4,364 nucleotides of DNA from a virus (IMGVR_UViG_2534681675_000009), one strand, 5' to 3'; numbered from the stretch's first letter, positions 2,232-4,364 are shown. Made by a program: numbers and translations. The notes: generated by a model not told the origin, from the sequence alone.

Positions 2232-2770
2232 AAACGGGAGCCGAAGCCATCCGGGCGCTGGCCACGCAGCTACCGTCGTTTCGCCAGAAACTGAATGAGG
2301 GCTGGTATCAGGTGCGCATTGCCGGGCGTGATGCAGGCGAAAACGAATTATCTGCCCGTCTTAATGAGCCGCTGGCAAATGGTGCCGTGATCCACATCGT
2401 ACCGCGTCTGGCGGGTGCCAAAAGTGGCGGTGTTTTTCAGGCAGTGCTGGGTGCGGCGCTGATTGCTACGGCAATCTGGATGCCGGGAATCAGTATCGCT
2501 TTCAGTGACATTCTCTTTTCTATGGGGGCAGCGATGACGCTTGGTGGTGTTGCACAGATGCTGGCCCCTAAACCCAAAACTCCACGTACACAGACAACGG
2601 ATAACGGCAAACAGAACACCTATTTCTCCTCGCTGGATAACATGGTTGCCCAGGGCAATGTCCTGCCTGTTCTGTACGGTGAAATGCGCGTGGGGTCACG
2701 TGTGGCATCTCAGGAGATCAGCACGGCAGATGAAGGGGATGGTGGTCAGGTTGTGGTAATTGGGCGGTAA
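2129..2770 (+). CDS. I: Tail tip assembly protein I, 213 aa
   Basis: ATG at 2129 lies 103 nt inside the 3' end of K in a different frame, an arrangement I recall for lambda K/I. Product begins MAATHTLPLASPGMARICLYGDLQRFGRRIDLRVKTGAEAIRALATQLP... and ends ...DEGDGGQVVVIGR, with a hydrophobic central segment. Stop TAA at 2768-2770. Confidence 0.85.
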   Translation: MAATHTLPLASPGMARICLYGDLQRFGRRIDLRVKTGAEAIRALATQLPSFRQKLNEGWYQVRIAGRDAGENELSARLNEPLANGAVIHIVPRLAGAKSGGVFQAVLGAALIATAIWMPGISIAFSDILFSMGAAMTLGGVAQMLAPKPKTPRTQTTDNGKQNTYFSSLDNMVAQGNVLPVLYGEMRVGSRVASQEISTADEGDGGQVVVIGR

Positions 2771-2842
2771 TATTATTTACTCATGTTCTAACTGATTTAA
2801 TATTTATATCGAATACTGATAATTATTCTGTTGGTTAGCTAT
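2771..2842 (+). promoter_or_regulatory. AT-rich putative promoter region for the inserted lipoprotein gene (exact -35/-10 not resolved)
   Basis: 72-bp strongly AT-rich spacer between the I stop and the lipoprotein ATG. Contains several -10-like hexamers, e.g. GATAAT at 2818-2823, about 20 nt upstream of the ATG. No convincing -35 (only weak TTTAAT/ATTTAA-type matches). Call rests on composition and moron architecture. Confidence 0.3.
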
Positions 2843-3181
2843 ATGAACAAAACGATTTTATTCTGCACGATTATTGCCTTAACAGGATGTAAATCTTTGG
2901 ATTACGTAAAATCCGGAAAACCTGTAATGGAAGGTAATTCATTAAAAAATATTGATGAATTGTCAGGCTGCATATCCAGACAATGGGCTGGTAATGGAAC
3001 ACCTATAACATCCCTTCCTATTGAGAATGGGGTAAGCCTTTTAGTTCCACAGGCTATGGGTGGGTACGATGTTGTGCTTGATATCAAAAAAGCAGGAAAT
3101 GGCAGTAGTTTTACTCTTTATGAACGAGTACCAGCATTAACGCCAAAAATTTTTGCTGATAGTGTTAATGCATGTAAATAA
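2843..3181 (+). CDS. Small predicted outer-membrane lipoprotein of unknown function (moron gene), 112 aa precursor, ~97 aa mature
   Basis: ORF-track entry 2831..3181 begins at TTG; the in-frame ATG at 2843 gives a canonical lipoprotein signal: MNK (n-region), TILFCTIIA (h-region), lipobox L-T-G-C (nt 2879-2890), then Lys at +2. AT-rich with A/T-ending codons, contrasting sharply with flanking tail genes. Two more Cys in the mature part (LSGCIS and NACK). No recognisable SD. Sequence not recognised by me. Confidence 0.7.
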   Translation: MNKTILFCTIIALTGCKSLDYVKSGKPVMEGNSLKNIDELSGCISRQWAGNGTPITSLPIENGVSLLVPQAMGGYDVVLDIKKAGNGSSFTLYERVPALTPKIFADSVNACK

Positions 3182-3205
3182 TAGTTAATCCTGCCGTAAC
3201 TCATG

Positions 3206-3233
3206 AGCCGCCTTTTGGGCGGCTTTGTCGTTT
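3206..3233 (+). terminator. Rho-independent terminator-like hairpin between the lipoprotein gene and J
   Basis: Perfect 7-bp stem AGCCGCC (3206-3212) / GGCGGCT (3218-3224) with 5-nt loop TTTTG, followed by T-rich tract TTGTCGTTT (3225-3233). It starts 25 nt after the lipoprotein stop and ends 15 nt before the J ATG. Oriented for + strand transcripts (no U-tract on the other side). Confidence 0.55.
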
Positions 3234-3247
3234 ATGGAGTGTGAGGA

Positions 3248-4364
3248 ATGGGTAAAGGAAGCAGTAAGGGGCATACCCCGCGTGAAGCGAAGGATAACCT
3301 GAAGTCCACGCAGTTGCTGAGTGTGATCGATGCCATCAGCGAAGGGCCGGTTGAAGGTCCGGTGGATGGATTAAAAAGCGTGCTGCTGAACAGTACGCCG
3401 GTGCTGGACAGTGAGGGGAATACCAATATCTCCGGTGTCACGGTGGTGTTCCGTGCAGGTGAGCAGGAGCAGACACCGCCGGAGGGATTTGAATCCTCCG
3501 GCTCCGAGACGGTGCTGGGTACGGAAGTGAAGTACGACACGCCGATTACCCGGACCATCACGTCTGCAAACATCGACCGTCTGCGCTTTACCTTCGGTGT
3601 GCAGGCACTGGTGGAAACCACCTCAAAGGGGGACCGGAATCCGTCGGAAGTCCGCCTGCTGGTTCAGATACAACGTAACGGTGGCTGGGTGACGGAAAAA
3701 GACATCACCATTAAGGGAAAAACCACCTCACAGTATCTGGCCTCGGTGGTGGTGGGTAACCTGCCGCCGCGCCCGTTCAGTATCCGGATGCGCAGGATGA
3801 CGCCGGACAGCACTACAGACCAGCTGCAGAACAAAACGCTCTGGTCGTCATACACCGAAATCATCGATGTGAAACAGGGCTACCCGAACACGGCACTGGT
3901 CGGTGTACAGGTGGACTCGGAGCAGTTCGGCAGCCAGCAGGTGAGTCGTAATTATCATCTTCGCGGGCGCATTCTGCAGGTGCCGTCGAACTATAACCCG
4001 CAGACGCGGCAATACAGCAGTATCTGGGACGGAACGTTTAAACCGGCATACAGCAACAACATGGCCTGGTGTCTGTGGGATATGCTGACCCATCCGCGCT
4101 ACGGCATGGGGAAACGTCTTGGTGCGGCGGATGTGGATAAATGGGCGCTGTATGTCATCGGCCAGTACTGCGACCAGTCAGTGCCGGACGGCTTTGGCGG
4201 CACGGAGCCGCGCATCACCTGTAATGCTTACCTGACAACACAGCGTAAGGCGTGGGATGTGCTCAGTGATTTCTGCTCGGCGATGCGCTGTATGCCGGTA
4301 TGGAACGGGCAGACGCTGACGTTCGTGCAGGACCGGCCGTCGGATAAGGTGTGGACCTATAACC
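3248..4364 (+). CDS. J: Tail tip host-specificity protein J, N-terminal ~372 codons (3'-partial, runs off the window)
   Basis: ATG at 3248 preceded by GGAG/GAGGA (3236-3247). Open frame to the window end with no stop. Translation MGKGSSKGHTPREAKDNLKSTQLLSVIDAISEGPVEGPVDGLKSVLLNSTPVLDSEGNTN... recognised from memory as a lambda gpJ-type N-terminus. Position immediately after I fits. Confidence 0.9.
   Translation, partial: MGKGSSKGHTPREAKDNLKSTQLLSVIDAISEGPVEGPVDGLKSVLLNSTPVLDSEGNTNISGVTVVFRAGEQEQTPPEGFESSGSETVLGTEVKYDTPITRTITSANIDRLRFTFGVQALVETTSKGDRNPSEVRLLVQIQRNGGWVTEKDITIKGKTTSQYLASVVVGNLPPRPFSIRMRRMTPDSTTDQLQNKTLWSSYTEIIDVKQGYPNTALVGVQVDSEQFGSQQVSRNYHLRGRILQVPSNYNPQTRQYSSIWDGTFKPAYSNNMAWCLWDMLTHPRYGMGKRLGAADVDKWALYVIGQYCDQSVPDGFGGTEPRITCNAYLTTQRKAWDVLSDFCSAMRCMPVWNGQTLTFVQDRPSDKVWTYN

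Follow-up and report, generated by a model that had tools for sequence, protein, structure and literature searches.

A small open reading frame between the tail assembly gene I and the tail tip gene J of a lambda-like E. coli prophage is a real, conserved gene belonging to a lipoprotein family that is uncharacterised. There is good evidence, from the reading frame itself and from the alignment of its homologues, that the product is a lipidated, disulfide-bonded extracytoplasmic domain. The sequence-only reading had proposed that this protein masks the receptor used by the J of the same phage, and the comparison of loci presented here does not support a tie between the lipoprotein and that receptor. 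Our leading reading, held tentatively and with somewhat less than even confidence, is that the protein may act at the envelope as a factor of phage exclusion or protection, without being matched to the receptor-binding domain of J. On present evidence the gene amounts to an ordinary 'hypothetical moron' whose anatomy is well defined, rather than to a demonstrated new mechanism, and what is new here, as judged from sequence and model comparisons, is a sequence family and a fold among the phage-borne envelope lipoprotein morons.

The window, by which we mean the whole 4,364-nt stretch of DNA that was analysed, comes from the tail-tip portion of a late operon of lambda type, with every feature on the + strand. 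It contains no RNA gene of any Rfam family, and its features are as follows.

to 453, + strand: end of the tape-measure gene, assigned by position
450 to 779, + strand: M (Pfam Phage_min_tail)
779 to 1477, + strand: L (Pfam Phage_tail_L)
1488 to 2231, + strand: K (Pfam Prok-JAB and NLPC_P60)
2129 to 2770, + strand: tail assembly gene I, the upstream neighbour (Pfam Lambda_tail_I, E 1.3e-23)
2771 to 3203, + strand: low-GC insert (moron), from the I stop codon to the backbone hairpin (GC content and lambda alignment)
2771 to 2842, + strand: AT-rich 72-nt leader with a weak Shine-Dalgarno sequence
2843 to 3181, + strand: coding sequence of the prolipoprotein, 112 aa, PHROG 914 (open reading frame and profile match)
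2843 to 2887, + strand: signal peptide, residues 1-15, with predicted cleavage before Cys16 (read from the sequence; the Cys column is invariant in 63 homologues)
2879 to 2890, + strand: lipobox L-T-G-C, with Cys16 the residue predicted to be lipid-modified, then Lys (+2) and Ser (+3)
2969 to 2971, + strand: codon of Cys43, one of the invariant pair, in predicted helix 37-50
3173 to 3175, + strand: codon of Cys111, the invariant penultimate residue, at the end of predicted helix 103-111
3205 to 3225, + strand: GC-rich hairpin with a T-rich tail, lambdoid backbone (terminator-like scan; also in lambda)
3248 to 4364, + strand: tail tip gene J, first 372 codons, the downstream neighbour (Pfam FNIII-A_GpJ, E 2.6e-41)

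The Pfam matches of the two neighbours place the lipoprotein gene between I and J, immediately 5' of J as had been read from the sequence. The start of I lies within the 3' end of K, in a different frame and with an overlap of 103 nt (2129-2231), which confirms the lambda-type organisation; in lambda the equivalent overlap runs from the start of I at 14773 to the end of K at 14875. The receptor-binding C-terminus of J falls outside the window, and full-length J in related loci has 1084-1160 aa.

The gene lies in a segment of foreign character. GC content is 33-39% over about 2701-3200, as against 56-60% in the flanks, and in the alignment to lambda 15375-15560 homology is lost at the I stop codon and regained at ~3204, so that ~430 nt have replaced ~20 nt of the lambda I-J spacer. 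The backbone finds matches in 4,537 of 5,426 E. coli genomes, the insert in only 337. A moron, in the sense of Juhala and Hendrix, is said to be extra DNA that is absent from collinear relatives, deviant in composition and equipped with its own promoter and terminator. The insert at 2771-3203 is extra DNA of deviant base composition, and lambda is without it, so that the description of the gene as a moron stands; it is a horizontally acquired accessory gene that has entered the spacer between I and J in the tail operon of a lambda-like prophage.

Signals for independent expression are another matter. On the + strand no promoter reached the threshold of the consensus scan, a relaxed sigma-70 scan of the leader gave 8 of 12 matches at best (e.g. 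TTTACT-17-AATATT at 2776-2804), and nothing rose above the chance level. Antisense reading frames at 2871-3002 and 2902-3087 and a minus-strand promoter-like site at 3178-3149 have no support, 1 promoter-like site having been found against 2.0 expected by chance. The hairpin at 3205-3225 was considered as the insert's own terminator and rejected: because lambda itself has this hairpin between I and J, it is part of the backbone and not of the insert. It is followed by TTTGTC(G/A)TTTATGGAG, just 5' of the J ribosome-binding site, and is conserved with lambda (J02459 ~15470-15495, our locus L077). It lies within the late operon, and its candidate roles are mRNA processing or stability, attenuation, or translational coupling of J. 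No terminator precedes the lipoprotein gene, which shares its strand with the tail genes, and it should therefore at least be co-transcribed with the late tail operon, which is the safe conclusion to draw from the layout; the gene may also be expressed in the lysogen.

The reading frame opens with ATG at 2843 and closes with TAA at 3179-3181, giving a 112-aa product that begins MNKTILFCTIIALTGC and continues KSLD... A TTG at 2831 is not supported as an alternative start because the homologues begin at the MNK/MKK position. The signal sequence, MNKTILFCTIIA-LTGC, has Lys3 in its n-region, a hydrophobic core of 10 residues and the lipobox L13-T14-G15-C16, which fits the strict pattern [LVI][ASTVI][GAS]C, as do 56 of the 63 homologues. 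The mature lipoprotein is 97 aa long and has two more cysteines, Cys43 and Cys111; these features, with the Lys at +2, are all as the sequence-only reading had described them. According to the E. coli Lol rule an Asp at +2 is the signal for retention in the inner membrane, and since Asp is absent at that position, here and in all 63 family members, the earlier prediction of outer-membrane sorting is upheld at the level of sequence. We therefore infer a location in the outer membrane, facing the periplasm. Because the steps of E. coli lipoprotein biology are established, we expect that the prolipoprotein would be exported by Sec, lipidated at Cys16 and then cleaved by signal peptidase II, and that the mature form would be stabilised by a Cys43-Cys111 disulfide and sorted by Lol to the outer membrane.

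The cysteines are also what the family has most strictly kept. In the 63-sequence alignment C16, C43 and C111 are the sole invariant residues, with P27, W48 and G63 nearly so; exactly three cysteines are found in 58 of the 63 members, the last of them is the penultimate residue in 60, and the median mature length is 97 aa. Cys43 and Cys111 are thus, on the pattern of conservation, the probable disulfide partners. Beyond this, identity between members is no higher than 20-38%, the core being conserved and the surface very variable.

The protein belongs to PHROG 914, a family whose annotation is 'unknown function': the match is full-length, with residues 1-112 aligned to positions 1-118 of the 118 in the profile (E 7.3e-33). 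Homologues at 48-62% identity occur in Klebsiella, Enterobacter, Kluyvera and Jejubacter, and an exhaustive profile search returned 125 cluster representatives at E<=1e-3, nearly all of 105-125 aa; two repetitive proteins of 782 and 1,047 aa among them were treated as spurious, and all the others are shorter than 160 aa. A second, word-indexed protein search added few distant members. Searches of Pfam, NCBIfam and PADLOC gave no meaningful family match for any member, the sole NCBIfam match being VirB7 at E 0.08 over the signal peptide only and the PADLOC anti-phage defence models yielding zero families at E<=10, and sequence and profile searches of the PDB gave matches at the level of the signal peptide only. 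In the library of papers searched, neither the accession nor the topic of tail-operon lipoprotein morons led to a study that mentions the protein. The suggestion that it may represent a new family holds in so far as no curated family covers it and fails in so far as it was already catalogued as PHROG 914.

Of 5,426 complete E. coli genomes, 337 (~6%) carry near-identical DNA, at 349 places in all, where the product is always annotated 'hypothetical protein' (WP_001332187.1). The DNA of the gene has no match in any deposited phage genome; at the protein level the deposited phages hold only homologues of ~30% identity, in the temperate phages Fraca and LMessi, and a scan of genome contigs gave a single locus, in Kluyvera. 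Some E. coli copies are apparently frameshifted or truncated (P0002, P0007 and P0018; L062 3279-3613, L063 10001-10335 and L064 10001-10338), the match to the query stopping part-way and the C-termini being scrambled, and in a minority of prophages the gene is apparently in decay.

Within the enterobacterial clade (>=48% identity) the gene is always found in a siphophage tail operon and co-oriented with it, at three insertion points. About 60 E. coli loci have it between I and J; Kluyvera, Klebsiella and several IMG/VR contigs have relatives (48-59% identity) between K and I, as do Fraca and LMessi with their homologues of ~30% identity; and Enterobacter-type HK97-like prophages have relatives, again at 48-59% identity, between the tail chaperone gene T and the tape-measure gene. 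In the K/I slot the gene starts ~40 nt after K, with a strong Shine-Dalgarno sequence and nearly no upstream spacer. That it has stayed among the tail genes at all three points suggests that linkage to, or co-expression with, these genes has been selected for; morons of unrelated function also occupy tail-operon slots, however, and position alone is therefore weak evidence.

Several of these loci have features of their own. In Fraca (L002 8725-8994) and LMessi (L003 8647-8994) the homologue is the second gene of a two-gene K/I cassette, the upstream reading frame of which encodes 90-115 aa (...GYVCGYVNAKNSYGAYTGKKPYYV...) and has no Pfam match. The K/I slot of L065 (6063-10911) holds an island of ~4.8 kb, a large cargo region in the middle of the tail-tip module, with several reverse-strand reading frames, a CI/Cro-type HTH gene (9515-9898), the lipoprotein homologue and a 149-aa reading frame. 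In the Klebsiella K/I-slot prophages L085, L086 and L088 (from 7054) J is a giant protein of 3,100-3,367 aa with CBM_4_9 in addition to FNIII-A_GpJ and Phage_Tail_Tip domains.

Llp and Cor both act on FhuA and are, to our knowledge, the only understood families of phage-encoded exclusion lipoproteins in E. coli siphophages. The protein described here is like Llp and like Cor of phi80, N15, HK022 and T1 in being a small lipoprotein, in having an intramolecular disulfide and a location in the outer membrane (both predicted here), and in the place of its gene, which is the tail or receptor-binding region of a siphophage; it also ends in Cys-Lys as Cor does. Small disulfide-bonded outer-membrane lipoproteins are the established format among E. 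coli siphophage exclusion factors (PMC9586334). The resemblance is one of format only, and the fold is different. With Llp from T5, Cor from phage Fraca and Bor from lambda as comparison sequences, the hhalign probability for the mature parts was 0.0% for Llp, 0.6% for Cor and 0.1% for Bor/Iss, and the full-length alignments were confined to the signal peptide for Llp (19 columns) and Bor/Iss and to the signal peptide plus linker for Cor (29 columns); in the PDB profile search Llp (8a60_B) was likewise matched over residues 1-19 only, at E 1.3. The mature-part comparisons rule out membership of the Llp, Cor or Bor families, so that the lack of similarity to Bor noted earlier is borne out and, with signal peptides removed, extends equally to Llp and Cor. 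Bor/Iss of lambda is also a prophage-encoded accessory outer-membrane lipoprotein of ~100 aa, but Bor lies on the opposite strand beside the lysis genes, whereas the gene studied here is on the same strand as the tail operon in which it lies. [quoted passage not shown]

On the sequence-only reading the lipoprotein would mask the outer-membrane receptor to which J of this phage binds, in the way that FhuA is blocked by Llp and Cor. The receptor-binding part of J is its C-terminus, and the lipoprotein gene lies at the 5' end of J, ~3.4 kb away from that part. We compared J among 37 loci that carry the same lipoprotein allele (98-100% amino acid identity) and in which J is open to its stop codon and longer than 900 aa. 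Their C-termini fall into four multi-locus types plus one singleton: type A in 25 loci, type B in 6, type C in 3, type D in 3, and the singleton in one locus (L053, 993 aa). Between types the first 900 residues are 89-99% identical and the last 150 only 20-61%, and the last 150 are 18-43% identical to those of lambda J. Type C is without the lambda-type C-terminal domain. The somewhat over-represented type A (25 of the 37 complete lipoprotein-linked J genes) is what masking would have in its favour here, but its C-terminal DNA occurs in 3,397 E. coli genomes and takes up 7,624 places in them, as against 349 places for the lipoprotein, so that >95% of type-A J genes in E. coli are without a lipoprotein of this type; the same C-terminal DNA is present in many deposited phages as well, e.g. 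VT1-Sakai.

The 1,084-aa type C J of L001 (20478-23732), also found in L028 and L033, is called a pseudogene 'missing C-terminus' by PGAP. It is intact and has the same end (...VIRVRMGRLF) in three independent loci, resembling the end of the Fraca-type J (...VLRVQIGKLTGVF), and on this comparison it probably represents a true form of J, one that depends on receptor-binding proteins encoded downstream, and not a pseudogene.

Receptor masking, which would block superinfection and the loss of progeny on cell debris, thus appears to us an unlikely explanation. What speaks for it is that the lipoprotein shares the format of Llp and Cor (PMC9586334), being small, predicted to reach the outer membrane and predicted to have a conserved disulfide, that its gene adjoins J in the tail-tip module, and that late co-transcription with the tail genes would suit the protection of progeny. 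Adjacency to J, from which masking had been argued, does not support it, since the known exclusion lipoproteins are encoded downstream of gpJ or beside the gene of the receptor-binding protein (PMC9586334); Cor, for example, is downstream of J, whereas this gene is upstream of it and its relatives are at K/I or T/tape-measure. The claim is not upheld by the other comparisons either: one and the same allele accompanies at least four J C-terminal types, one of them devoid of the lambda-type domain, the relatives use other slots, a Klebsiella relative is combined with the giant J of different architecture, and no sequence similarity to Llp or Cor is left once the signal peptide is removed. Three loci, L002 (Fraca), L065 and L074, have both the lipoprotein homologue and, downstream of J, a true Cor gene; there the lipoprotein is not the FhuA masker.

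Independence from the receptor-binding type of J and coexistence with Cor fit a target other than the receptor of J, and it is on these grounds that we lean towards exclusion or protection at the envelope without a match to J. Superinfection exclusion in the broad sense is a plausible candidate role. The protein might bind a conserved host envelope protein that other phages use, or it might block a post-adsorption step common to lambdoid tails, e.g. the periplasmic passage of the tip or tape measure, in which case its effect would be analogous to that of HK97 gp15 or of the Gram-positive lipoprotein Ltp. HK97 gp15 is a superinfection-exclusion moron, a YebO-like inner-membrane protein that is not a lipoprotein and whose gene has a promoter of its own, active in the lysogen, and its slot in HK97 is that between T and the tape-measure gene (PMC3594210). 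Both are foreign genes in a lambdoid tail operon, and the Enterobacter-type relatives of the lipoprotein sit in exactly the gp15 slot, which, together with the siphophage exclusion format of a small disulfide-bonded outer-membrane lipoprotein (PMC9586334), argues for exclusion of this kind. The likeness established between the two is that of the insertion slot only, gp15 being an inner-membrane protein and not a lipoprotein. Against exclusion stand the lack of homology or of any convincing fold match to an exclusion protein, the lack of a match among defence-system models and of a convincing promoter of its own, and distant members that lie outside tail modules, one of them in a housekeeping neighbourhood (see below). 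About ten complete E. coli genomes, moreover, carry 2-3 copies of the insert in different prophages (3 in NZ_CP010240.1, 2 in NZ_CP012625.1), which speaks against a strong exclusion of phages that themselves have this gene.

A narrower version, in which the protein would represent a new Gram-negative class of exclusion lipoproteins that, instead of masking a receptor, intercepts the incoming lambdoid tail tip, tape measure or K peptidase in the periplasm, beneath the outer membrane, and so is a functional analogue of Ltp and HK97 gp15, strikes us as improbable; if true, it would explain the three tail-operon slots, the independence from J type and the coexistence with Cor.

The predicted fold gives a class and no function. 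An AlphaFold2 model from a 12-sequence alignment is confident (pLDDT 83.6, pTM 0.75) and consists of a short helix, a strand, helix 37-50, four strands and helix 103-111. Foldseek against the PDB returned nothing at E<=1e-3, the best structural neighbour being Flpp3 (E 6e-3, TM 0.52), and against viral models gave one good match, to an uncharacterised protein of Pseudomonas phage phiAH14a (TM 0.70/0.83). The resemblance to Flpp3/DUF3568 of Francisella tularensis and to the N-terminal domain of BamC is weak, with an identity of only 6-10%, and many helix-grip or TBP-like domains that bear no relation to it (DUF302, KA1, START/Bet v 1) reach similar scores, so that the match to Flpp3 and BamC is one of fold class. 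The model indicates a small helix-grip or TBP-like alpha+beta domain. Flpp3, which we take to be an outer-membrane lipoprotein, was deposited as a Francisella tularensis 'virulence determinant'.

Three distant members (22-28% identity) were found in three contexts, namely divergently oriented in a phage replication module, on an integrative island, and on the opposite strand in a small phage or satellite. A further one, of 23% identity, is present on two independent metagenome contigs (L092 258-620 and L093 1279-1641) with uvrB adjacent and in convergent orientation with a GspH/FimT-like pseudopilin gene, a conserved and non-mobile neighbourhood. Given this member beside a gspH-like gene and uvrB, the family also takes in chromosomal housekeeping lipoproteins and the fold has a role outside phages as well; to judge from these neighbourhoods the fold is a general bacterial envelope lipoprotein domain that phages have acquired, similar to the derivation of HK97 gp15 from YebO (PMC3594210). 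The islands and chromosomal housekeeping contexts point to a general envelope role and so lend something to the view that the gene serves the host as a lysogenic-conversion factor, giving serum or complement resistance, stress tolerance or help in colonisation in the manner of Bor/Iss and Lom; a moron-like low-GC insert in ~6% of complete E. coli genomes from many sources, and Flpp3 as the best structural neighbour, are in line with it. We consider this unlikely overall, if less so than receptor masking.

Less probable still, in our judgement, is that the protein is a periplasmic inhibitor of, or immunity protein against, an enzyme or toxin that attacks the envelope; the candidate targets would be a peptidoglycan hydrolase (including an incoming NlpC/P60-JAB K), a T6SS effector, a colicin or a tailocin. 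In its favour, the lipoprotein is small, is predicted to be periplasmic and stabilised by a disulfide, combines a conserved core with a very variable surface, is carried on mobile elements and in many relatives is encoded directly 3' of K (Prok-JAB and NLPC_P60), but no similarity to known lysozyme inhibitors or immunity families was found, nor a cognate toxin gene nearby, and the link to K is purely positional and missing in the I/J and T/tape-measure slots.

The family is common in Klebsiella and Enterobacter prophages and is present in ~6% of complete E. coli genomes. If its members exclude phages, as we tentatively propose, they would affect the host range of phage therapy in clinically important Enterobacteriaceae and could reveal a new target or step of exclusion; if they instead contribute to host fitness, the gene would be another widespread lysogenic-conversion gene.
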